A DNA stretch of 64,000 bases from the NCBI GenBank assembly GCA_963692865.2, contig OY843592.1, positions 224,001-288,000 of the forward strand, read 5' to 3'. Positions 18,724 through 40,877 of this stretch are shown in pieces (the first letter of the stretch is position 1; each line of letters opens with the position of its first letter). This DNA comes from a bacterium (GTDB lineage: Bacteria; UBA8248). A model generated the notes under the pieces. That model did no database searches. It was given only the letters and a program-made list of their open reading frames with translations, and was not told the DNA's origin. Made by a program: the position numbers and the translations under genes.

Positions 18724-19872
18724 ATGTACAGCATACGCCACCCGAAACGAACCTGGTTCGGCTTGGGAACCATAGCGAAAATCAAGGATGAAGCGGCGTT
18801 TCTGGGCGCCCGCAACGCGCTTTTCTTGACAGACAAGGGCGTGAGAGGCGCAGGCGTAGCGGACATGGCGCTGGCCCCTCTCGAGGAGGCAGGCGTCGAA
18901 GTCACGATATACGATGAATGCCCGCCCGAACCCGCCATCGGCGACCTCGAAAATGCCTTTGCGGAGTTCCAAAACGCCTCTTTCGACCTCGTCGTCGGGG
19001 TCGGAGGCGGCAGTTCGATGGACATGGCGAAATCCATTGGCGTATTGCTGGGGAATGACGGCGCGCCCAGGGATTATCTGGGGGTAGAACTCGTGCCGAA
19101 ACCGGGCCTCTCCACCATTTTGGCACCCACCACGAGCGGAACCGGCGCCGAAGCCACGCCCAACGCCATCTTCTCGGTGCCGGAAGAACAGGTGAAACTG
19201 GCCATCGTGAGTACGCACGTCATCCCGTTCGCCGCCATCGTCGACCCGAAACTCACGCTTTCCGCCCCGCCGAAAGTCACCTCCGCCGCCGGTGTGGACG
19301 CCTTCACGCATTGCTTGGAAACCTACGTGGCCAGAAACGCCACGCCATTGAGCGAGACGTACAGTCTGGAGGGTATGAAACTCATCGCCCGCTCCTTGAG
19401 GCGCGTATGCGCCGATGGAAGCGACATCGAAGCCAGAACCGATATGGCCCTGGGCTCATACTACGGCGGGGTTGCGCTCGCAGGAGCCGGGGCGGGCGCC
19501 ATCCACGCCCTGGCGTATCCGCTCGGCTCGCGGTTTCACATCCCGCACGGGGTCAGCAACTCGCTGATGTTCTCCCACGTCATGAAGGAAAACCACGCGG
19601 CGGCGCCGGAGAAGTTCGCTCGCATCGCCCAAATACTGGGCGAATCCATCGATAAGATGTCCACGGCTGAAGCTGCCGAGCTTTCCGTCGGCGCGGTCGA
19701 GAAACTTTGTCGCGATTGCGGGGTGCCCACCCGGCTCGACGAAGTCGATGTCCCCGCACACGCGATACCGGAGTTGGCCGAAGCCGCCTTCAAGCTCGAA
19801 CGTCTTTTGAATTGCAATCCCAAAGAACTTACGCTCGAGGACATCGAGAGAATCTATCGCGCCGCGGCTTGA
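18724..19872 (+). CDS. Iron-containing alcohol dehydrogenase
   Basis: GGGSSMD, PTTSGTGAE, DAFTH, HALAY, HG metal-binding motifs. Confidence 0.93.
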   Translation: MYSIRHPKRTWFGLGTIAKIKDEAAFLGARNALFLTDKGVRGAGVADMALAPLEEAGVEVTIYDECPPEPAIGDLENAFAEFQNASFDLVVGVGGGSSMDMAKSIGVLLGNDGAPRDYLGVELVPKPGLSTILAPTTSGTGAEATPNAIFSVPEEQVKLAIVSTHVIPFAAIVDPKLTLSAPPKVTSAAGVDAFTHCLETYVARNATPLSETYSLEGMKLIARSLRRVCADGSDIEARTDMALGSYYGGVALAGAGAGAIHALAYPLGSRFHIPHGVSNSLMFSHVMKENHAAAPEKFARIAQILGESIDKMSTAEAAELSVGAVEKLCRDCGVPTRLDEVDVPAHAIPELAEAAFKLERLLNCNPKELTLEDIERIYRAAA

Positions 19873-19874
19873 AA

Positions 19875-20660
19875 ATGCCCACAGAATTATCTTCTTCACG
19901 AAAATTGCGCTCTCTGATGGACATCTCTCCCGGCGATATGGTCTGCGTCATGGGCGCCGGCGGCAAGGCCACGCTCATGAAACGACTCATCCGGGAGATG
20001 CTCGATGAGCCCTTTCCCGTCATCATCACCAGTACGACGAACCTCCACGCACTGGGCGGCGAAGACACACCACCCGTTCTGATGAGCGAGGAGGGTCGCG
20101 CAGAGCTGCAATCCGTCGCCCAAGACTGGTCGGGGCGCGGCGCCGTCGTCTGGGTGGAGAAAAAACTGCCCCAGAATATGTTTCGCGGCCTCGATGCGAG
20201 CCAGGTGGAAGCGCTGCACGCTTCGGGTTTTGACGGCGTGATGGTCGTGAAAACCGACGGCGCCAGGAAACGGCTCATCAAGGCCCCGGGAGCAGGTGAG
20301 CCGGTTATTCCCGAAGGGGCGACGCACTGCGTACTCGTGTTGGGACTGACCGCAATTGGACGAAAAGCGGATGAGCGCATCGTCCATCGCATGGAAAGGG
20401 TTCGTGCCATTGCTGATTTGAAGCCTGGAGAGTCCATCAAAGCGCACCATTTAACTATGTTGGCGAGTCACCCGGAGAGTTATCCTGGTCGGATTCCAAA
20501 AAGCGCAAAGCGGATACTCTACCTGAGCCATTGCACTTCCCCAAAAGCCCTTCAGGACGCACAAACGATATTCGAGGCTGCCCCGGACGGCATTTACGAT
20601 TACCTCCTCACGGGAGATTCTATTGCGGGAAATTTTTACAGCAGGGGGCAAGACCAATGA
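19875..20660 (+). CDS. yqeC: Selenium-dependent Mo-hydroxylase accessory protein YqeC-like
   Basis: GAGGKAT, VIITSTT, DGARKRLIKAP..EPVIP, and VLGLTAIG match the YqeC pattern (canonical EADG is KTDG here). Confidence 0.8.
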   Translation: MPTELSSSRKLRSLMDISPGDMVCVMGAGGKATLMKRLIREMLDEPFPVIITSTTNLHALGGEDTPPVLMSEEGRAELQSVAQDWSGRGAVVWVEKKLPQNMFRGLDASQVEALHASGFDGVMVVKTDGARKRLIKAPGAGEPVIPEGATHCVLVLGLTAIGRKADERIVHRMERVRAIADLKPGESIKAHHLTMLASHPESYPGRIPKSAKRILYLSHCTSPKALQDAQTIFEAAPDGIYDYLLTGDSIAGNFYSRGQDQ

Positions 20661-21814
20661 TCGGCGCGGCCACCATCAGAAAAGCGCTTGAAGCCAGACA
20701 AGAGGAAATCATCGAGCAAATCGCCCACGTGGTAAGCATCGATTCTCCGACGTTTCCCAGTACTGGAACGAACGCCGTCTCCTCCCATTTCGCTGAAAAA
20801 TATCGCGCCATGGGAGCTGACGTAGAGATGATACCCGGCACGCACGAAACGGGAGATCATCTTTTGGCGACGTTCCATGGCGCAAGAAAAGATGGGCCCA
20901 AAATTTTTTTAATCGGACATTGCGACACCGTTTTTCCGGAAGGAACCGCCACCCAAAGGCCGTTCACCATCAGGGACGGGATTGCCTACGGCCCCGGGGT
21001 GGCCGACATGAAGGGGTGTCTGGTGGTATGTCTATCCGCGATGGAAGCGCTACTGGCCGCAGGATTCGAGGATTTCGGGAAAATTCAGATTTTATACGAC
21101 ACCGATGAGGAACGTGGGAATCCTTCCTCCAGAGAAGTGATAGAGCAAATTGGAAAAGACGCCTCCGCCGCGTTGGTCATCGAGTCTGGGCGCGCAAACG
21201 GCTCCATCGTATCTTCGAGAAAAGGAAGTTGCTACGGAAAATTGACTGTCAATGGCGTCTCGGCCCATGCAGGGGTAGATCCTCAAAAAGGGAGAAGCGC
21301 CGTGCATGAACTCGCCCATAAAATACTAGCCATTCAAAACCTGGAGCAAATTGGCGGAACCATCAATATCACCGGTTTATCGGGTGGAGACAGGCCGCAT
21401 ATTGTGGCGGATGAGGCTACCTGCCACGTAGAGATGCGTGCAGAGCGGCAGCCAACCCTCGACTCCATGACGGATGAACTGCGCCGCATTATTTCCGATT
21501 CGCACATCGACGGGACACGTTCAAGATTTGAAAAAATCAGCGGGAGGCCAGCCATGGAATGCAACCATGCGACGGAAAAGCTTTTGTCTACTGCTGCGGA
21601 AATCGCCCATGATGCGGGCGTCAAACTTCAGCATGGCCCTACCGGCGGGGGTTCGGATGGGAATTATCTCTCTCCGCTTGGAGTTGCGGTTCTCGATGGG
21701 CTGGGCCCTGTAGGTGGAAATCTGCATACAGAGGAGGAATACTTGGAACTCGACTCCATAGTTCCTCGAGGCGCGCTGCTTGGCGGGTTGGTCGAGCGCT
21801 TATCTTCTGAATAA
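20657..21814 (+). CDS. M20-family metallopeptidase (carboxypeptidase G2-like)
   Basis: GHCDTV, ADMKG, DEE, AHAG, GGSDGN, HTEEE. Confidence 0.9.
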   Translation: MIGAATIRKALEARQEEIIEQIAHVVSIDSPTFPSTGTNAVSSHFAEKYRAMGADVEMIPGTHETGDHLLATFHGARKDGPKIFLIGHCDTVFPEGTATQRPFTIRDGIAYGPGVADMKGCLVVCLSAMEALLAAGFEDFGKIQILYDTDEERGNPSSREVIEQIGKDASAALVIESGRANGSIVSSRKGSCYGKLTVNGVSAHAGVDPQKGRSAVHELAHKILAIQNLEQIGGTINITGLSGGDRPHIVADEATCHVEMRAERQPTLDSMTDELRRIISDSHIDGTRSRFEKISGRPAMECNHATEKLLSTAAEIAHDAGVKLQHGPTGGGSDGNYLSPLGVAVLDGLGPVGGNLHTEEEYLELDSIVPRGALLGGLVERLSSE

Positions 21815-21831
21815 GGCCGACTCGGGATTTC

Positions 21832-23073
21832 CTACCCTTCCAAGGGAATTCCGACTTCGGAACGGGGTTTGGGTCCCGCAACCACCCCAGCATCAAGCAA
21901 GTTATCTATCTTCTCGTCGCTGAATCCCAGGAAACCTGACAAAATCTCGCGGGTATGCTCGCCGTGCAAAGGGGCCGGTCCTTGCACCTTGCCCGGATGC
22001 TCGGAAAATTTGGGGGGAACACCGGTAGTGTTCATTTTACCCAGAAGCGTATGGTTCGTTTCCACCACCATCTCTCTGTGACGAACCTGCTCATCTTCGA
22101 GCGCTTCGCCGACATCATAAACCGGGCCGCAGGGAATCCCTTTTTCCTCCAGTAATTTCAGCCACTCATCCCCGTTTCGTCTGCAGAGATACCGCTCCAA
22201 TATGGGGATGAGCTGATCGCGATTTTTCGCGCGGTTCGGGATGTCGACAAATCTCGGATCATTCGCCAGTTCAGGGGCCTCAATGATATCACAGAAATAA
22301 CCCCAGAACCGATCGCTCGTCACCCCGATGATGATTTCCTTATCCTTGGCCTTGAGCGCCTGATAGGGAACGATTTGAAAATGGGCCGAACCCCACCTCT
22401 CGCTCATGCTGCCATCCATGAAATAGCAGCCGCTCAGGTTGGTGAGCAGAGACACGCTGCTGTCGAGAAGAGACAGATCGATGTATTGCCCCCTGCCCGT
22501 CTTCTCCCTGGCGAACAATGCGCTGCTTACGCTATAAGCCGCCCACATGCCCGCCGTGAGGTCGCTGAGCGGAACCCCGGCCTTGCAAGGTCCGCCGTCG
22601 GGTTCGCCCGTTGCGCTCATGATGCCGCTCATCGCCTGGCCGACGATGTCAAAACCCGCGCGTTCCCGATAAGGGCCCGTCTGTCCGAAGCCGGAGACGG
22701 ACACGTATATCAATCTAGGATTCAAGGCGGATAGCGTCTCATACCCGACGCCCAGGCGCTCCACGACGCCGGGGCGAAAATTCTCGACAACCACGTCCGC
22801 CTTTTTTGCTATGGCGCGGGCAATCTCGAGGCCTTCGCTTTTTTTGAGATCGACCACGATACTCTTCTTGCCGTGGTTCACACCCAAGAAATAGGCGCTT
22901 TCTCCTTTCTTGAAAGGAGGGCCCCAGGTGCGGGTTTCATCGCCGTTTCCGGGAGATTCGAGCTTGATGATTTCCGCACCCAGATCCGAGAGCATCGTAG
23001 TGCAAAATGGCCCGGCGAGGATTCGGGACAAGTCCAACACGCGAATTCCCTTCAATGGTCCCTGTGCGTTCAT
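21832..23073 (-). CDS. CaiB/BaiF family III CoA-transferase
   Basis: LKGIRVLDLSRILAGP, ADVVVENFRPG, GFGQTGP. Confidence 0.93.
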   Translation of the reverse strand: MNAQGPLKGIRVLDLSRILAGPFCTTMLSDLGAEIIKLESPGNGDETRTWGPPFKKGESAYFLGVNHGKKSIVVDLKKSEGLEIARAIAKKADVVVENFRPGVVERLGVGYETLSALNPRLIYVSVSGFGQTGPYRERAGFDIVGQAMSGIMSATGEPDGGPCKAGVPLSDLTAGMWAAYSVSSALFAREKTGRGQYIDLSLLDSSVSLLTNLSGCYFMDGSMSERWGSAHFQIVPYQALKAKDKEIIIGVTSDRFWGYFCDIIEAPELANDPRFVDIPNRAKNRDQLIPILERYLCRRNGDEWLKLLEEKGIPCGPVYDVGEALEDEQVRHREMVVETNHTLLGKMNTTGVPPKFSEHPGKVQGPAPLHGEHTREILSGFLGFSDEKIDNLLDAGVVAGPKPRSEVGIPLEG

Positions 23074-23334
23074 CACCCCATCCTGAGTAACAAGCAAGAA
23101 GATTTTTGCGAATGTATAGAATGTGCAAAGACGCGGGGCAGTCTGTCAAGGAATCTTGATGAAATTCAGCGTGCATTTCCCGGCATCTGGATGTCGTCAA
23201 AAAAGCCTCTGCGAATTCGCGCAGACGCGTAGGACGAGAAGCGCAAACTCCAAGACCCGGTTCGAAAAAAGGACCAGCTCTCAACAAGGGAGCGCTTGGC
23301 TCATGCGGTGCGCCACCCATTCATGACGAAAATT

Positions 23335-24363
23335 TCAGGCAGAAAAATGCTCCCAGGCGAGATTTTCCAGCGCGAAAATCCCATCTGCGCGTTTGAGGGA
23401 AATCCCTTCAGGAGCCGGTACTATTTCTCCGATGGGGGTGAGCGGCGCCCCTCTCGATTGTCGGACGACTTCCTGAAGCGTTCCTACGGATTCAGCGGGC
23501 GTCGTGACGAGAAGTTCGTAGTCTTCTCCGCCGTGCAGCGCCCACTCGCTGGGCTTTTTCTCGGCGACAGAGGCTACTTCGAGCAAGGTGCTGGAAACGG
23601 GTAATTCCGATTCCCAAAGGATAGCTCCCGTCCCGCTTGCCTCGCACAAGTGACGGATATCGCCCGCCAGCCCATCGCTGATGTCCATCATGGCGTTGGC
23701 CAGCCCCGATTCCGCGATAGCTACCCCCTCCGCAACACGGGGCCGCGGCTCAAACTGCGCGCGGGTGAGCGAGGCGCGCAAGTCTTCTCGGAATTGGATG
23801 TGCGGTGCGGAGGACAAGTGAAGCCCCGCTGCGGCATCGCCCAAATACCCTGTCACCAAAATCCTGTCTCCCACGTGAGCACCGCTTCGGAGAAGAACTT
23901 TCTCCTCCATCATTCCGCCGACGAGGAACACGTCGACGAACAAAGGACCACTCGTTCGCGTGACGTTTCCGCCCAATATCAAAATGTCGTACTGCTCCGA
24001 GAGCGCGCGGACCCCACCATACACGTCGTCAAGAAACGAAACGGGCGTCTCTTCGGGTATCCCCAATGAGATGAGAGCAAAACGCGGCTTTCCCCCCATT
24101 GCCGCCACGTCGCTCATGTTCACCGCCAGCGACTTGTAGCCCACGGCGAAACCGGAAACATCCCATGTGGACGGGAAATGCACGCCGCCGACCTGCGCAT
24201 CGCACGTCACAACCCAGCACTTCCCCTCTGCCGCCTTGATGACGGCCGCATCATCCCCGTTCCCGACGATGACGTCCGCATCGTTTCCGATCGAGCCGAG
24301 TTTGTTTCTCAGGCGTTCTATAAGGGCGAACTCGCCAATATCTCTCGCCGATCCTCCGCTCAT
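23335..24363 (-). CDS. thiL: Thiamine-monophosphate kinase
   Basis: GEFALI, GDDAA, NMSDVAAMGG, MDISDGL, GGEDYEL. Confidence 0.95.
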   Translation of the reverse strand: MSGGSARDIGEFALIERLRNKLGSIGNDADVIVGNGDDAAVIKAAEGKCWVVTCDAQVGGVHFPSTWDVSGFAVGYKSLAVNMSDVAAMGGKPRFALISLGIPEETPVSFLDDVYGGVRALSEQYDILILGGNVTRTSGPLFVDVFLVGGMMEEKVLLRSGAHVGDRILVTGYLGDAAAGLHLSSAPHIQFREDLRASLTRAQFEPRPRVAEGVAIAESGLANAMMDISDGLAGDIRHLCEASGTGAILWESELPVSSTLLEVASVAEKKPSEWALHGGEDYELLVTTPAESVGTLQEVVRQSRGAPLTPIGEIVPAPEGISLKRADGIFALENLAWEHFSA

Positions 24364-25004
24364 CTCCCCGCCCTCTCGATGCGCTTGCGCAACTCCCTGG
24401 TCGCGGCTTCAGGGTCGGACGCTCCCATCACCGCGCCGATAACGGCGACGCCCGAGGCGCCGGCTTCGATGACGGGTTCCACGTTCTCGGCGCCGATTCC
24501 CCCGATGGCGACGGCAGGCATGCCGGGGGCATGTTCGATTATCCGCCGGAATCCTTCCGGCCCGATCGGCGCCCTCGCATCGGCCTTGCTCCCCGTCGCA
24601 TATACAGGGCCTACACCGATATAATCCGCATTCTCGGCGGCGGCCCGCGATGCCCATTCGGGTTTTCCGGCTGTAACGCCATAAAACAACGTATCTCCCG
24701 CCATCGCCCTGGCCCTCGAAATCGGAAAATCCTCCTGCCCCAGATGCACCCCGTCCGCGCCACAGGCCATGGCAACGTCCACCCGATCGTTCACCGTAAA
24801 AGCGCAGCCGGTTCCTTCCAGAACCTCCCGCAGTTCATCCCCCAGGCGAATCATCTCTAAGCCGCTTAAGTTTTTCTCTCGAAGCTGTACCATGCCGGCC
24901 CCGTTCGTCGCGGCTGCCCGAACCGCGTCTTTCAGCTTCCATCCGGAAGCCTGTGACAATATCTCCCGGTCGGTGATGACTATCAGCGACAGGTCGAATT
25001 TCAT
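24360..25004 (-). CDS. thiE: Thiamine-phosphate synthase
   Basis: QLREK, NDRVDVA, GVHLGQED, AIGGI; overlaps the thiL start. Confidence 0.93.
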   Translation of the reverse strand: MKFDLSLIVITDREILSQASGWKLKDAVRAAATNGAGMVQLREKNLSGLEMIRLGDELREVLEGTGCAFTVNDRVDVAMACGADGVHLGQEDFPISRARAMAGDTLFYGVTAGKPEWASRAAAENADYIGVGPVYATGSKADARAPIGPEGFRRIIEHAPGMPAVAIGGIGAENVEPVIEAGASGVAVIGAVMGASDPEAATRELRKRIERAGR

Positions 25005-25194
25005 GGCGTCCTCCGAGAAAGCAAAAGCAAATCTACCACGTTGATAATGAAATACGACTACTATGACAAGCAAGACAATCCATGTTGAGGCATGCGTTCA
25101 TTTGTGAAGGAGACATCCAAAGATACCGAACGTATCTCTTGCACATTTCTTCTATGCTTGAGAACCTCCTCCCCTATCATCAGAGGAGGACGCC

Positions 25195-25794
25195 ATGAAC
25201 TGGATTCAACCCATTTCCCCGGATGACGCGGAGGGGGCCACAAAAGAAATCATCGATGACCTGCGCAAGACGGGAAAACCCATTCCCAGGATGTTTCTCG
25301 AGATGGGCTGGAGACCCGATATTCTGGCCGGGCGCGAAACGCTCCGCCGCGCCGTTCATGGCGGCTCGAGTCTCGGCACGAGGCGGGCGGAGTTGCTCGC
25401 TTTCTACGTGGCGGCCCACGGGGGGTGATACGGCTGAGCGATGAACCACGGGCAGTTGTTCCGTGACGAATGCGATGACGCCTCCACCGCCGAAGTGGCC
25501 GAGGTGCTGGACGACCCGAAGCGAGCGGGAATCCTCGACCCGGCGGACCGCGCCATGCTCGCCTATGCGGAGAAGTTCACCCACGCACCCCACCAAATGG
25601 AAAAAGCGGACATCGAGCGGCTCAGGGGCGCCGGCTTCAGTGAGGAGAACATCGTGGACATCATCGCGGCCGCGGCCTACAGAAACTTCGCCAATTCGAT
25701 CAACTACGCCTTTGGGCACGTGGAGCAAAATCCCGAAGGACCCGAAGAGTTGCAGACCACCATCCAGAGGTTGAAAAAGAAAATTCGTGGCTAA
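25195..25794 (+). CDS. AhpD/CMD-like peroxidase-related selenoprotein candidate with UxxU motif
   Basis: ORFs 25195-25428 and 25441-25794 are in one frame, joined by GGG TGA TAC GGC TGA GCG ATG AAC CAC = G-U-Y-G-U-A-M-N-H, matching the AhpD CxxC-x3-H motif. Downstream YAEKFT..P and GFSEENIVDI...NFANSI fit the family. Confidence 0.85.
25450..25468 (+). promoter_or_regulatory. Candidate bacterial SECIS hairpin (coordinates +/-3 nt)
   Basis: CACGG-GC-AGTT-GT-T-CCGTG: stem with a small G-U-containing loop, loop 16 nt after the second UGA and 25 nt after the first. Folded by eye. Confidence 0.55.
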
Positions 25795-26530
25795 CAAATC
25801 ATGCGCCCTTTCATCCATATCGTATGTGGGTCTGTTCATATCCGGCGCTTGCGCGCTGGCCGCCATGGCGTCCGGGCTGGGCCATCGCTGGGAATTGTGG
25901 CATTTCAGCACGGGATTCCAGATTTTCAAGTCCGCATCCGTCATCGCGCTGCTCTCCGTTGTCGTATCCATGGCTGGAGGCCTGTTCGCCTTGCGCGACG
26001 CTTCCAGGCTCAAGACGTTGGCCGCCGCCCTTGGCATCGCATTGGGTTTCACCGTAGCGGGCTTCCTTCACGCGCACATGCAGATCGCGAGACGGGTGCC
26101 CAAGATCCACGACATCACGACGGACACCCAAAACCCTCCCGCTTTTCAAGCCGTCATTCCACTACGAAAAAATGCAAAAAACCCGCTCGTTTACGAAGGA
26201 ACACGCATCGCCCGGCTTCAGAAAAAAGCGTATCCGGACATCAAGTCACTTCCTTTCCAAATTTCAAAAGAAGAAGTTTTCAAACGCGCCCTGGACGCCG
26301 CGCACGCCATGGGTTGGCATGTGGTGTCATCCAAACCGACAGCAGGACGCATCGAGGCCTATGACACGACTTTCTGGTACGGCTTCATTGACGACATCGT
26401 CATACGGGTTACGTCGAGCAGTGGAACGACGCGCCTCGACATTCGCTCGAAATCCCGCGTGGGCGTAGGCGACATCGGTGCGAATGCCAGGCGAATTCGT
26501 GGATTTTTCGAGAAACTGAAAGTAAGATAG
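25787..26530 (+). CDS. DUF1499-family membrane protein
   Basis: Three TM segments; IHDITTD, YPDIK, GFIDDIVIRV, RSKSRVGVGDIGANARRI. Confidence 0.85.
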   Translation: MANKSCALSSISYVGLFISGACALAAMASGLGHRWELWHFSTGFQIFKSASVIALLSVVVSMAGGLFALRDASRLKTLAAALGIALGFTVAGFLHAHMQIARRVPKIHDITTDTQNPPAFQAVIPLRKNAKNPLVYEGTRIARLQKKAYPDIKSLPFQISKEEVFKRALDAAHAMGWHVVSSKPTAGRIEAYDTTFWYGFIDDIVIRVTSSSGTTRLDIRSKSRVGVGDIGANARRIRGFFEKLKVR

Positions 26531-26603
26531 ACTCAAAGTCGCAACTTCTGTCGGCGGGGATTCGTCGTGGAATAATGCCTTGCAAAGCGCGATGAGGGGT
26601 CAC

Positions 26604-28931
26604 ATGCCCGACTATGAGGTTCTAGGCAAGTCCATACCGAGGCTCGACTCTGCAGAGAAAGTTTCCGGATTCGCCGATTTCGGCGATGATTTGAGGAGGC
26701 CCGGCTGCCTCACCGCGAAATTGCTCCTGAGTCCCCACCCCCACGCCGAAATCAATAAAATCGACACCACCGATGCCTTGAAGATTCCCGGCGTGCGCGC
26801 CGTCGTCACGGCGGACGATTTTTCCGGCATCCGCCACGGCAGGCTCGTTCGCGATGAACCGCTGCTCGCCGTCGACAAGGTGCTTTACGTCGGCGAGCGC
26901 GTGGCCGCCGTGGCCGCCGAAACCCCCGAAGCCGCGCAAGCAGCACTCGCGAAAATTCATGTCGATTACAAGGTGCTCCCCTCCGTGTTCACGACGGACG
27001 ACGCCATGAAGGAAAACGCCCCGCTTCTGCACGACTCACTGGATGATTACGCATCGTTTCCGGGTATCGTCCGCTACGGAAACGTGGCCGCCGATATTCT
27101 CATCCGCTCCGGCGAACCCATAGAAACCGCGCTCGCGCGCGCGGATTTCGTATTCGAGGACGAATACGAAACGCCCCGCGTTCACCAGAACTATCTCGAA
27201 CCCCGCGCCATGCTTGCCGAGCCCGGACCCGAGGACAGCACGATAGTCTATTCGCCCACCCAGGCGGCTTTCGTGGTGCGCGCCATCGCCTCGGAGATAC
27301 TCGAACTTCCGATGAACAAACTGCGCGTCATAAGCACCCACGTGGGAGGCGCTTTTGGCGGCAAATCCCAACATTTGATGGAAGCCCTGGCTGTTCTTTT
27401 GAGTAGAAAGTCGAATAGGCCCGTTCAATTGACTCTCAATCGCGAGGAGGAAACCATCACCGGAAACCCGAGGCACGCTTACCGCATGCGCTATCGCACG
27501 GGCGTGACGCGGGAAGGGAAAATCATCGCGCGCCACGTGCAAATCACATCGAACAACGGCGCATATTGCATGACGGGACCCATGGTGTTGGGAAAATCCT
27601 GCTACACCAGCGCGGGGCCATACAAAATCCCGAACGTCAGGGTCGATGGTCTGCTCGTGTATACGAATCTTCCGCCCAGCGGCTCCTACCGGGGATTGGG
27701 CGTGGCGCAGGTCGCTTTCGCTTGCGAGCGCCATATCGACCGCATCGCTTCGGAACTGGAAATGGACCCGCTCGCCTTTCGAATCCTCAACGGGATGGAT
27801 GAAAACGACGAGGACCCCGCGGGCACGATTCTACAAAGCGTAAGCATCAAGGAAACGCTCGAGCGCGCGGGCAAGAAGGCGGGCTGGGGAAAGCAGAAAA
27901 AGGAAAACCAGAATGGCAGAATCAGGCGCGGGATGGGCATCGGCTGCGCTCGCTATCCCACGGGCGGGGGAGCGTCGGGAGCCGTGGTGAAAGTGAACGA
28001 GGACGGGGGCCTGGCCGTGCTGGCCGGGTGCGCCGATCTGGGTACGGGTGCGGCTACCGTGATGGCGCAGGTGGCGGCGGAAGTTCTTGGAGCCGAGATC
28101 CAAAAGGTGAGCGTCCGCATCGCCGACACCGAAACCACGCCCTTCGACGCCATCTCCGCGGGCAGCCGCACCACGTTCAACATGGCGCACGCCGTGCGCA
28201 TGGCGGCGGAAGACGCCCGCGAGCAAATGCTTCGCCAGGCGGCGCGCATACTCGAGTCCTCCCCCGAAGACCTGGACATCGGCGAAGAAAGCATATTCGT
28301 ACGGGCGGCGCCATCGCGCGCCATCGCGTTCGCCGAGGTGGCGTATTCGGCCGTATGGAAAGGCGACGGCCCCGTAACCGGCCGCGGCTCCTACCGCGGA
28401 GAGAATCCACCCCATCGCACGGACAACGTACGCGGACACCCGGAGCCCTCGAGGCCCGGGCCCGAATTCGCGACCCAAATCGCCGAAGTCGAAGTCGATA
28501 CCGAGACGGGAGAAACCAGAGTCCTGAGAATCACCAGCGCGCAGGATGTCGGCTTCGCCATGAACCCCCTCACCCTGAACGGACAGATAGAGGGCGGCAT
28601 CGCTCAGGGACTTGGCTGGGCTCTCGCAGAGCAGATACACGACGAAGAGGGTATCATCGAACATGCGGATTTTGAGAGCCAACTCAATCCCACCAGTCTG
28701 GACGTCTCGGAAATCGAAAGCGTGATCGTGGAATCACCCGACGTGGAAGGCCCCTACGGGGCCAAAGGGGCTGGTGAGATGCCGCTCATTCCGGCGGCGC
28801 CCGCAATTGCGAACGCGATCGCCGACGCCATCGGGGACCCGGCCAACCCGAACCTCAACAGGCTGCCGATTGCGCCGGAGGACGTCGTTCGCGCGGTTCG
28901 TGAAAAAAACACCGCCGAATCGTTTTCCTAG
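26604..28931 (+). CDS. Xanthine dehydrogenase/CoxL-family molybdopterin-binding subunit
   Basis: SPHPHA, GGAFGGK, YRGLG, GQIEGG, GAKGAGE. Confidence 0.93.
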   Translation: MPDYEVLGKSIPRLDSAEKVSGFADFGDDLRRPGCLTAKLLLSPHPHAEINKIDTTDALKIPGVRAVVTADDFSGIRHGRLVRDEPLLAVDKVLYVGERVAAVAAETPEAAQAALAKIHVDYKVLPSVFTTDDAMKENAPLLHDSLDDYASFPGIVRYGNVAADILIRSGEPIETALARADFVFEDEYETPRVHQNYLEPRAMLAEPGPEDSTIVYSPTQAAFVVRAIASEILELPMNKLRVISTHVGGAFGGKSQHLMEALAVLLSRKSNRPVQLTLNREEETITGNPRHAYRMRYRTGVTREGKIIARHVQITSNNGAYCMTGPMVLGKSCYTSAGPYKIPNVRVDGLLVYTNLPPSGSYRGLGVAQVAFACERHIDRIASELEMDPLAFRILNGMDENDEDPAGTILQSVSIKETLERAGKKAGWGKQKKENQNGRIRRGMGIGCARYPTGGGASGAVVKVNEDGGLAVLAGCADLGTGAATVMAQVAAEVLGAEIQKVSVRIADTETTPFDAISAGSRTTFNMAHAVRMAAEDAREQMLRQAARILESSPEDLDIGEESIFVRAAPSRAIAFAEVAYSAVWKGDGPVTGRGSYRGENPPHRTDNVRGHPEPSRPGPEFATQIAEVEVDTETGETRVLRITSAQDVGFAMNPLTLNGQIEGGIAQGLGWALAEQIHDEEGIIEHADFESQLNPTSLDVSEIESVIVESPDVEGPYGAKGAGEMPLIPAAPAIANAIADAIGDPANPNLNRLPIAPEDVVRAVREKNTAESFS

Positions 28932-30206
28932 TTTTTCAGTTCGAATTTCTCATCATAAATGTCAAAATTCGATGAAGCCGCGATGTTCCGGGCCTGCGTG
29001 ATGAGCTTGCGCGACAGATTCGAGATGTCGGGATTTTTGAGAAATTCAATGAAGAAATCGTAATAAAAAGCATCGGGCCGCACTTGGACACGCACCCTTA
29101 GCCTCGCCGCATCCTCTCTTCGTCCCCTCTTGTACCGAAACGTGATGGATTTTGGGGGAGGAATGCGCGTGTCATGGATTTCACGGCTGAAATCGGACGA
29201 GAGTTTCCGCTTTATCAAGTTGATTTGCCTCGAACCCGGAATGGTTCGCCCGTATTTATCCTCAAGTTCGGTGATCACATCCACGGAAGGCGTGATGCAG
29301 GTAGGAAAATAGTGGCCTGCTCCTGAATTCGTGAGCTCAATCTCGGCCGTCCCGATTTCCCCGTGCGCTTCCGCTCCCACCTTGACGTCTATCCGCACGG
29401 CGCCCTGGGTCATATCCTTGCCATGTATGCTCCGCCACAGATGCGCCCGCCCGGGCATGTGGCAATTCTGGCAGGCGACCCCTTCCTTGCCCCAAAGCGA
29501 GTTTTTCCATTCGTAATAGGCATTCTGAATCGATTTCCCGTTCGGCCCGGGAAACGCGTGCTGGTGACAACCCATGCAAAATTCAGAGCGGCTGAAAAAA
29601 AGCGTGCGCTCCACACCGGCATGCGGGCCATCGCTTGTTGTATCGTCTACGCCTTCGGGGGTCTCTTTCCTCCGGGATCATGTACGCGCCAATCACGTAC
29701 ATGGCATGCGGCGCAGGCCAGCCCGTGCATCTCCAGTTTCGGGTCGTGGACCGGGTTTTTCCGCCATCTCGAAAAAGAGTCCGCATCCAGCTTCGCGCGC
29801 TTTTGCTGTTCCGCCAAGGGCGCATGGCACTCGTTGCAGCTTTGTGCTTTCCCGGGATTCGTTTTCCACATATCGACGAACTGTCCATATATGCCCGGAC
29901 TCATCGCCCTGGCGTGAGGCGTGGTCCTCCATTACTTGTACCGCTCGGGATGACAACTCCCGCAACGCTCCGGCGAAAGAGAGCGTTCAGCGCCTTCGTA
30001 TGATTTCGGCGCCTCGCCTATGGGAGGCAACGGATAGCGGAAGTAATCGTTCACGAATTCCCGCCAATGCTTCCAGTTACCGGAAATCCTTTTTTTTCCG
30101 AAACTTGAACAGAGGGAAAGAAGAGGCTTTTTGACATCTTCCGGGAAAACGCCGGGAGAGTGAGAAAGAATATGGAAGCGATGAAGATCGCGAGTTTCAA
30201 GCGCAT
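28928..30206 (-). pseudogene. Disrupted multiheme c-type cytochrome (5 CxxCH)
   Basis: Signal peptide from ATG 30206; CGSCH, CNECH, CAACH, CMGCH, CQNCH across frames. In-frame TAA at 29932-29934; frameshifts near the T8 tract at 30090-30097 and near 29650. Confidence 0.8.
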
Positions 30207-34751: not shown

Positions 34752-34837
34752 GGAGGGATGGCCGAGCGGCCGAAGGCGGTGGTCTTGAAAACCACTGAGC
34801 GAAAGCTCCGGGGGTTCGAATCCCTCTCCCTCCGCCA
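34752..34837 (+). tRNA. tRNA-Ser (anticodon TGA)
   Basis: GGAGGGA acceptor stem; anticodon arm GTGGT-CTTGAAA-ACCAC; long variable arm; GTTCGAATC; encoded CCA. Confidence 0.95.
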
Positions 34838-35262: not shown

Positions 35263-35354
35263 GGAGAGATGGCCGAGTGGCTGAAGGCGCTCGCCTGCTA
35301 AGCGAGTAGGCTGGGAAACCGGCCTCGAGGGTTCGAATCCCTCTCTCTCCGCCA
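35263..35354 (+). tRNA. tRNA-Ser (anticodon GCT)
   Basis: GGAGAGA acceptor stem; CTCGC-CTGCTAA-GCGAG; long variable arm; encoded CCA. Confidence 0.95.
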
Positions 35355-40720: not shown

Positions 40721-40877
40721 CCATGAGCGGCGCAGATCCTGCGACGGAGCCGGCCGGCCAGGCGCCCTCGTGGCGCCCGGGAGTGTCCGCTTACCGCTGC
40801 TTCCTTCCGGACCTGACGGGGTTCGCGGGCTCCCGCCGCACGAGACCCGACCGGCCGAATCCATCACAGGCTCATGG
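40721..40877 (-). ncRNA. ffs: Signal recognition particle RNA
   Basis: The minus strand contains CCGTCAGGTCCGGAAGGAAGCAGCGG (SRP helix 8). Terminal CCATGAGC/GCTCATGG pairing, promoter TTCCCA-17-TAGGAT just upstream, and position upstream of dnaX. Confidence 0.9.

Follow-up and report, generated by a model that had tools for sequence, protein, structure and literature searches.

The window analyzed here is a stretch of 64,000 nucleotides of contig OY843592.1 (assembly GCA_963692865.2, positions 224,001 to 288,000), and on its forward strand lies a gene for an AhpD-like protein whose reading frame contains two UGA codons three codons apart. In the reading that we consider likely, the gene is functional and codes, in a marine Nitrospinota bacterium, for an AhpD-fold selenoprotein of the family TIGR01926 in which both redox residues of the CxxCxxxH motif are selenocysteine (Sec), i.e., U78-Y-G-U81-x-x-x-H85. 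We take the protein to be a new UxxU variant of a selenoprotein family known in its CxxU form, and the gene is both conserved and mis-annotated. The parts of the gene, in window positions, are the following.

25184..25189, forward strand: Shine-Dalgarno-like AGGAGG, read from the sequence, 5 nt 5' of the start codon
25195..25794, forward strand: AhpD-like selenoprotein gene, 199 codons plus TAA, with TIGR01926 and Pfam CMD matches
25390..25392, forward strand: codon of Glu66, 12 residues before Sec78, a conserved acidic active-site residue (Glu in 88/101 homologs)
25426..25428, forward strand: first in-frame UGA, codon 78 (predicted Sec78), in the first Cys column of CxxCxxxH
25435..25437, forward strand: second in-frame UGA, codon 81 (predicted Sec81), in the second Cys column, where CxxU relatives already have Sec
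25447..25449, forward strand: codon of His85, the H of UxxUxxxH, near-invariant in a 112-row alignment; also the first three bases of hairpin A (see below)

A sequence-only reading of the window had proposed that two in-frame TGAs, at 25426-25428 and 25435-25437, join two fragments into one protein of 199 aa. The sequence reads accordingly: from the ATG at 25195 to the TAA at 25792-25794, the read-through product has 199 residues and contains the motif HGG-U-YG-U-AMNH. Under translation table 11, the gene is split into an open reading frame (ORF) of 77 aa (25195-25428) and another of 117 aa (25441-25794). That standard annotation would split the gene was also anticipated, and the public records are in this state. 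In a collection of 5.8 billion proteins, 25 of the 28 matches are C-terminal fragments of 117-120 aa, the two named matches are called 'hypothetical protein [Nitrospinae bacterium]', and no full-length record is among the matches.

Family, active site and fold of the read-through protein

The read-through product scores 89.4 bits against the hidden Markov model (HMM) of TIGR01926 (NCBIfam, 'peroxidase-related enzyme'), whose curated cut-off is 81.8, and 25.5 bits against the Pfam CMD family (PF02627, cut-off 23). When 1.84 billion representative proteins were searched exhaustively with phmmer, 1333 matched at E <= 0.001, among them N-terminal fragments of 80-82 aa. From 152 proteins (P0027-P0178) we took the 101 with 165-250 aa, leaving out fragments and fused forms. 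Among these full-length homologs, the column of the first UGA is Cys in 84 and that of the second in 85, His85 (four residues after the second UGA) is present in 95, and the complete CxxCxxxH in 70. The proposal that both UGAs replace the redox Cys of the family is borne out by these columns.

The AlphaFold2 model, built with the 112-row alignment, is all-helical, with ten helices, a mean predicted local distance difference test score (pLDDT) of 96 and a predicted template modeling score (pTM) of 0.90. The first motif residue is at the N-terminal end of helix 79-92, and the fold is unbroken and confident over the TGA junction. Compared with the PDB using Foldseek, the model has 33 matches at E <= 0.001; all the listed ones belong to the AhpD/CMD family or are uncharacterized proteins so annotated. 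The AhpD of Deinococcus radiodurans (6k40) ranks top, with template modeling (TM) scores of 0.76/0.81, followed by the 'peroxidase-related' 2prr, 3c1l and 2oyo and then by the CMD-family debrominase Bmp8 (TM 0.69). A sequence search of the PDB agrees, with 6k40 at E 4e-16 and Bmp8 (6ohi) at E 9.7e-4. In the best sequence and fold matches (6k40, 2prr, 3c1l, 2oyo and 2pfx), CxxCxxxH aligns with UxxUxxxH, but these proteins have Cys throughout and about 25% identity. Hence, the features of TIGR01926 membership are found together in this protein: the HMM score, the CxxCxxxH columns with the upstream Glu, and the all-helical AhpD fold.

The AhpD of Mycobacterium tuberculosis (1knc, 1gu9), whose dithiol re-reduces AhpC, likewise has CxxCxxxH and the upstream Glu, and the counterpart of Glu66 is what we take to be its proton relay. 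It is a distant fold match (TM 0.47, Foldseek E about 0.09), and the AhpC-AhpD system differs from the UxxU locus, where no ahpC-like neighbor was seen among the ten flanking ORFs scanned.

Sec machinery, conservation and origin of the UxxU gene

The own genome (G000) is an assembly of 4.15 Mb in 8 contigs, with a contamination of 6.69%. Decoding of the UGAs as Sec, as the sequence-only reading had it, finds its machinery there, since selA, selB, selD and a tRNA-Sec are all present. The selA gene (567.2 bits) is close to selB (391.7 bits), and selD (334.6 bits; G000:C1:65915-66877, reverse strand) has one in-frame TGA, from which SelD itself is predicted to be a selenoprotein here. The tRNA-Sec scores 76.7 bits and is called tRNA-SeC with a UCA anticodon by ARAGORN. 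It occurs in two copies, on contigs C1 and C4, which are identical over the 121 bases compared, flanks included, and canonical, with an 8-bp acceptor stem and a G before CCA. Searching the genome with RF01852 gave 13 matches, and only the two selC copies are above the cut-off. The six matches ranked just below them were checked and are Leu and Ser tRNAs; hence, the best 8 of the 13 matches include no further selC-like tRNA that would be of the tRNA(ReC) type. The genetic code is not reassigned, since TGA also ends several orthologs of the UxxU gene as an ordinary stop codon. We also observed that the tRNA-Sec locus on C4 duplicates that on C1 and that a CxxU paralog on C3 is a near-copy of one on C1, which points to contig redundancy or a mixture of strains in the assembly and not to true duplications.

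We searched 51 genomes of the phylum, own included, with a procedure that reads through stops and counts them. A full-length double-TGA match was found in 24 of them: 19 of the 23 genomes of the genus (the own and 18 others, 74-93% identity), the single genome of genus g3 (62% identity) and four of the five genomes of genus g2 (53-54% identity). The four genus genomes without the gene are 95-100% complete. One of these, G010, has two stand-alone matches to residues 115-199 with 78% identity (G010:C4:127136-127390 and G010:C5:835962-836216), which may be what is left of a copy that was lost or disrupted. The codons were read in 23 of the 24 double-TGA loci (G065 was left out), and TGA is present at both sites in 23/23, the 22 loci other than the own having 53-93% protein identity to it.

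Three matches were set aside. L028, in the own genome (26% identity), is a CxxC protein that ends in TGA, and the matches with two TGAs in G025 and G043 (25-31% identity) are CxxU proteins whose second TGA is the stop codon. A search for related loci in genome contigs returned 8 loci, all among those already found by the genome search. A pattern scan of metagenomes returned 12 stretches, none of them outside the two known clades. Eight are true orthologs with TGA at both sites in 8/8, several of them being identical to one another or to genome loci and thus not independent, and the other four are chance matches. DNA contigs from the public runs X1 and X5 span both TGAs, as does X21, a contig of 483 nt from an RNA library of a sponge metagenome (25362-25842, 45 differences); for these three contigs, none of the differences listed falls in 25417-25486. 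The RNA run X20 covers 25440-25584 only. As a contig, which carries no information on expression level or transcript ends, X21 is only a hint that a relative is transcribed.

To quantify selection, we computed the ratio of nonsynonymous to synonymous divergence (dN/dS, Nei-Gojobori) in the 171 pairs of the 19 genus orthologs. It is 0.123 for codons 1-77 (dS 0.68) and 0.148 for codons 97-199 (dS 0.64), from which it follows that the parts on either side of the TGAs are each translated and selected. This bears on a reading of the locus as a pseudogene, as a pair of small genes or as an error of sequencing, which the production of fragments only by gene callers might have favored. That reading is refuted: 24 genomes have kept the full-length frame with its two TGAs, purifying selection acts on both halves, and the fold is continuous over the junction. 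The sequence-only reading would have been refuted had the TGAs been errors for TGC or TGT; they recur in all 23 loci read, in the eight metagenome orthologs and in independent contigs.

The nearest relatives of the UxxU genes form a CxxU clade (TGY then TGA), found in 22 of the 23 genus genomes with 47-51% identity. The own assembly has two copies of it with 48% identity (G000:C3:31039-31611 and G000:C1:3328495-3329067), and one more CxxU gene, with 53% identity, is in G029. The first site is TGY (Cys) in the nine nearest CxxU relatives read. Remoter members of the family are CxxU or CxxC. We built a maximum likelihood tree of 43 rows (23 UxxU, 14 CxxU, 6 CxxC; midpoint root only). All UxxU rows form one clade with branch support 100/99, the branching inside this clade follows the genera, and the UxxU state needs one change, in 100% of the bootstrap trees. 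The order of events, CxxU first and UxxU derived, is drawn from the fact that all other branches are CxxU or CxxC. The UxxU motif would thus have arisen once, by a change from TGY to TGA in a CxxU ancestor, and been kept in at least three genera. The retention of TGA instead of TGY at the first site despite a dS of about 0.65 on either side argues that Sec, and not Cys, is the selected product.

Proposed recoding of the two UGA codons

The sequence-only reading had noticed a small hairpin with a GU-containing loop downstream of the TGAs. It is indeed present and, with a possible extension, has the following coordinates.

25447..25465, forward strand: hairpin A, candidate upper stem-loop of a Sec insertion sequence (SECIS), 7 pairs, bulged U at 25459, loop AGUU at 25454-25457, from minimum free energy (MFE) folds
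25432..25482, forward strand: possible extended SECIS, with a lower stem that encloses the second UGA (UGA2) and flanks hairpin A; less well supported

The loop of hairpin A begins 16 nt after UGA2 and 25 nt after the first UGA (UGA1). The bacterial SECIS consensus quoted in a 2026 review (Fig. 2 legend of PMC13188914) allows loops of 3-9 nt and stems of 4-16 bp, with a G in the first two loop positions, a UGA-to-loop distance of 16-37 nt and an MFE <= -7.5 kcal/mol. Hairpin A has a loop of 4 nt with G at position 2, a stem of 7 bp and spacings of 16 and 25 nt, all in line with this consensus. The MFE of its core is -7.6 kcal/mol, which is borderline, and that of a 60-nt stretch with the possible lower stem is -12.1 kcal/mol. 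Among 20 distinct UxxU sequences, hairpin A has standard pairs in 138 of 140 cells, the variation consisting of a G-U/A-U alternation at one pair and a C-A mismatch in L049, and the loops in the other genera are GGUC or GUC. The lower stem (25432-25442 with 25470-25482) is paired in 161/180 cells of the UxxU sequences, with several mismatches and little informative change. At the gathering thresholds of Rfam, the window yielded a signal recognition particle (SRP) RNA and two tRNAs only, and nothing at the selenoprotein gene.

The region is also constrained at the RNA level. In the 19 genus orthologs, dS is 0.21 in codons 79-96 vs 0.64-0.68 elsewhere. The synonymous entropy in sliding windows is 0.10-0.23 for those starting from codons 79-88 vs 0.4-0.9 elsewhere. 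When degenerate codons with an invariant amino acid are considered, 7 of 10 in codons 79-90 are a single codon in all 19 orthologs vs 6 of 84 elsewhere (Fisher p 1.7e-5). Arg90 is CGT in all the 31 sequences that have Arg at this position, although these genes use CGT for only 53 of their 520 remaining Arg codons.

The relatives of the UxxU clade show that other hairpins are used in the family. Distant CxxU proteins have a stronger hairpin, of different bases, at the position of hairpin A, and this position is therefore probably ancestral, for site 2. An upstream shift of the SECIS in the wake of the new UGA was considered and rejected, because these distant CxxU relatives already have a hairpin at A. 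In the sister CxxU paralogs (L026-L027, L053-L058), hairpin A is kept in only 46/63 cells, and another hairpin (B), 8 nt downstream of A, is paired in 76/81 cells with one GC/AU swap, its loop lying 24 nt after the UGA. In the UxxU clade, hairpin B is paired in 111/180 cells and is not maintained. As the two clades use different hairpins, the RNAalifold consensus of 29 distinct sequences was uninformative, and the pairs were then counted per clade. Judged from these comparisons, the position of the SECIS appears to have shifted within one protein family.

The simplest reading of these data, with which they agree, is that one SECIS, hairpin A, would serve both UGAs. SelB and Sec-tRNA(Sec) would most likely recode both codons, directed by the stem-loop at 25447-25465 in the coding sequence. 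Hairpin A probably served the second UGA first, and the first UGA, 9 nt further upstream, would still be within the published range of UGA-to-loop distances.

Several observations weigh against this interpretation. The 101-nt fold around the site is not more stable than shuffles (z 0.89), and for this reason the case for a SECIS is made by conservation, position and synonymous constraint, and not by energy. Hairpin A is small, its core barely reaches the consensus limit of -7.5, and the 16 nt from UGA2 to the loop are the lower bound of the consensus range. The conservation of the stem is confounded with that of the residues H-G...F-R, double-sided covariation is nearly absent inside the UxxU clade, the stem of L049 has its C-A mismatch, and the MFE fold of L051 picks another structure. 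The use of hairpin B by the CxxU paralogs implies that the SECIS position is not fixed in the family. In Escherichia coli fdhF the spacing between UGA and SECIS is strict, and under such a constraint it would be difficult for a single element to act on two UGAs separated by 9 nt.

These difficulties leave room for two other views of the decoding. One is that only the second, ancestral UGA is Sec, the first being read as Cys (by a SelB-dependent tRNA(ReC)-type or near-cognate tRNA) or Trp, or else acting mostly as a stop, with a product of 77 aa and occasional read-through. This would fit with the Cys found at the first site of the sister clades and with a hairpin placed where distant CxxU relatives have theirs for the second UGA. 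Further, according to a 2026 paper on UXXU Group 4 [NiFeSe] hydrogenases, tRNA(ReC)-like genes are more numerous in genomes with UXXU, and the paper does not settle how the codons are decoded. We nevertheless regard it as unlikely. A TGY codon would serve Cys as well or better, yet all the loci read have TGA; no tRNA(ReC)-like tRNA appeared among the best 8 of the 13 RF01852 matches; and the 25 nt of UGA1 are within the consensus range.

The other, a minority alternative that we hold to be very unlikely, is a relay between hairpins: A would serve UGA1, the ribosome would melt the 5' arm of A after 9 nt, and hairpin B (~25457-25472, loop 24 nt after UGA2) would then serve UGA2. The good conservation of B in the CxxU paralogs, including the GC/AU swap at one pair, speaks in its favor, as does the fact that the distance of B from the CxxU UGA nearly equals that of A from UGA1. 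The lowered synonymous change also reaches about codon 96, past hairpin A. Yet B is poorly paired in the UxxU clade, where a common change of Glu92 to Ala breaks one of its pairs without compensation, and distant CxxU proteins use the A position for a single UGA, so that A alone can serve site 2. We thus retain recoding of both UGAs from hairpin A. With moderate confidence, we lean towards the fuller picture of a natural diselenide-forming Sec-x-x-Sec center in an AhpD fold, which arose once from CxxU, was inherited vertically across Nitrospinota genera and has both UGAs recoded from a single small intragenic SECIS.

Proposed chemistry, neighborhood and other UxxU systems

By analogy with the CxxCxxxH enzymes of the AhpD family, one residue of the motif would attack the oxidized substrate and the other would resolve the adduct. 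Its reduced form would be a diselenol and its oxidized form a diselenide within the molecule, and the cycle between them would reduce a hydroperoxide or an oxidized partner protein, with His85 and Glu66 assisting proton transfer. From general selenium chemistry, a diselenide would have a lower redox potential than the center of the CxxU paralog in the same cell and would resist over-oxidation. The default substrate, again by analogy, would be a peroxide or a peroxiredoxin. The neighbors of the gene and the other features of the window are as follows.

25787..26530, forward strand: DUF1499 membrane-protein gene (Pfam PF07386, 83.4 bits), whose GTG start lies within the final 8 nt of the selenoprotein gene, which the two genes share
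26580-28931, forward strand: molybdenum (Mo) hydroxylase large subunit of the xanthine dehydrogenase / 4-hydroxybenzoyl-CoA reductase type, under every equivalog cut-off
34752-34834 and 35263-35351, forward strand: tRNA genes (Rfam), Ser-UGA and Ser-GCU by ARAGORN on matching loci
40753-40852, reverse strand: SRP RNA (Rfam)

Because of the 8-nt overlap, the DUF1499 gene is a probable operon partner of the selenoprotein gene. The own locus has this neighbor, and so do 19 of the 22 further UxxU loci that were screened, namely all 18 of the same genus and L048 of g3; its product is a possible functional partner. Upstream, thiE and thiL are divergent from the selenoprotein gene. The ten flanking ORFs scanned (window positions 18724-30134) comprise an iron-containing alcohol dehydrogenase, an M20 peptidase, a CoA-transferase, thiL, thiE, the DUF1499 gene, the Mo-hydroxylase large subunit and three without a Pfam match. 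There is no peroxiredoxin among them, so the classical pairing of AhpC and AhpD is not indicated. We also observed that the ORF at 28928-29614 (reverse strand, 228 aa) has two CxxCH heme motifs and a weak match to the ExtKL multiheme cytochrome (seleno)protein, 28.5 bits vs a cut-off of 250. A longer frame containing TGA was considered for it and dropped, as upstream read-through gave no convincing extension.

An AhpD-fold selenoprotein could also have a job other than peroxide defense, i.e., act as a reductive dehalogenase like Bmp8 or as a reductase for another electrophile of the habitat. Sec enzymes such as deiodinases perform reductive dehalogenation, Bmp8 is among the sequence and fold matches, and the partner to which the gene is linked is a DUF1499 membrane protein and not a peroxiredoxin. 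Parts of the stretch occur in runs labeled as sponge, coral-reef and marine metagenomes; the sponge runs are many, and the two of them that were compared, X5 (DNA) and X21 (RNA), both cover the gene. However, AhpD and peroxidase-related proteins match far better (E 4e-16 for 6k40 and a TIGR01926 score above cut-off), and the flanking ORFs scanned showed neither a halogenase nor bmp-like genes. A job of this kind is quite unlikely, and dehalogenation as in Bmp8 would be a long shot next to a peroxide or peroxiredoxin.

Diselenide redox centers are, to our knowledge, very rare in nature, and eukaryotic SelL is the only biochemically studied case that we know of. In SelL, a UxxU diselenide in a Prx-like fold was reportedly proposed and shown to form, in work attributed to Shchedrina and colleagues in 2007. 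SelL shares the UxxU redox motif with the protein described here and differs in its thioredoxin/Prx fold and in its SECIS, which is in the 3' untranslated region. The fold of SelL and of the Prx-like proteins is not that of the UxxU protein, whose model is all-helical and AhpD-like; the motif is all they share.

Among bacterial selenoproteins, the sequence-only reading had held that AhpD-like proteins with a single Sec exist, and two reviews, of 2022 and 2026, indeed list the 'AhpD-like protein' (COG2128 / TIGR01926) as CxxU with one Sec. In the parts of these reviews available to us, UxxU is given only for a Prx-like oxidoreductase, the metal-binding NF041115 and an FmdB-family protein, and in the corresponding parts of the GOS paper it is mentioned only for Prx-like 2. 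The AhpD-like CxxU selenoprotein shares with the UxxU protein the family, the fold, the Sec at the second position and a hairpin just downstream in the coding sequence. It differs by the Cys at the first position, where the UxxU protein has a predicted Sec, and its nearest paralogs use another hairpin. The Prx-like thiol:disulfide oxidoreductase, NF041115, the FmdB-family TIGR02605 and the UXXU [NiFeSe] hydrogenases likewise have two Sec three residues apart. Their folds and chemistry are unrelated to those of the AhpD-like protein, and in the hydrogenases the residues bind Ni and are no redox pair. Since other bacterial families have UxxU, the idea is not unprecedented.

We found no description of an AhpD-like UxxU protein in the literature, where the contents of BSepDB and supplementary tables may list one. 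BSepDB, by its own description, has a pipeline that handles two or more Sec, and it lists genomes labeled as Nitrospinota with 48-54 selenoprotein genes; it may therefore contain this protein. For the hydrogenases, the authors of the 2026 paper propose that a single SECIS downstream may serve both UGAs and that the transition between CXXU and UXXU leaves the SECIS unchanged. The gene described here bears on the question raised there, i.e., whether one SECIS can act on two UGAs three codons apart.

If the interpretation is true, the UxxU gene would be a natural bacterial test of the reach of SelB and SECIS from the UGA, and of the benefit of a diselenide over a selenenylsulfide. The UxxU enzyme, the CxxU paralogs in the same genomes and the CxxC relatives would provide a natural comparison between dithiol, selenenylsulfide and diselenide. 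The Nitrospinota are the phylum of the marine nitrite oxidizer Nitrospina. As the gene is truncated in all the public records found, the selenoproteome of this phylum and its oxidative-stress repertoire are under-annotated.

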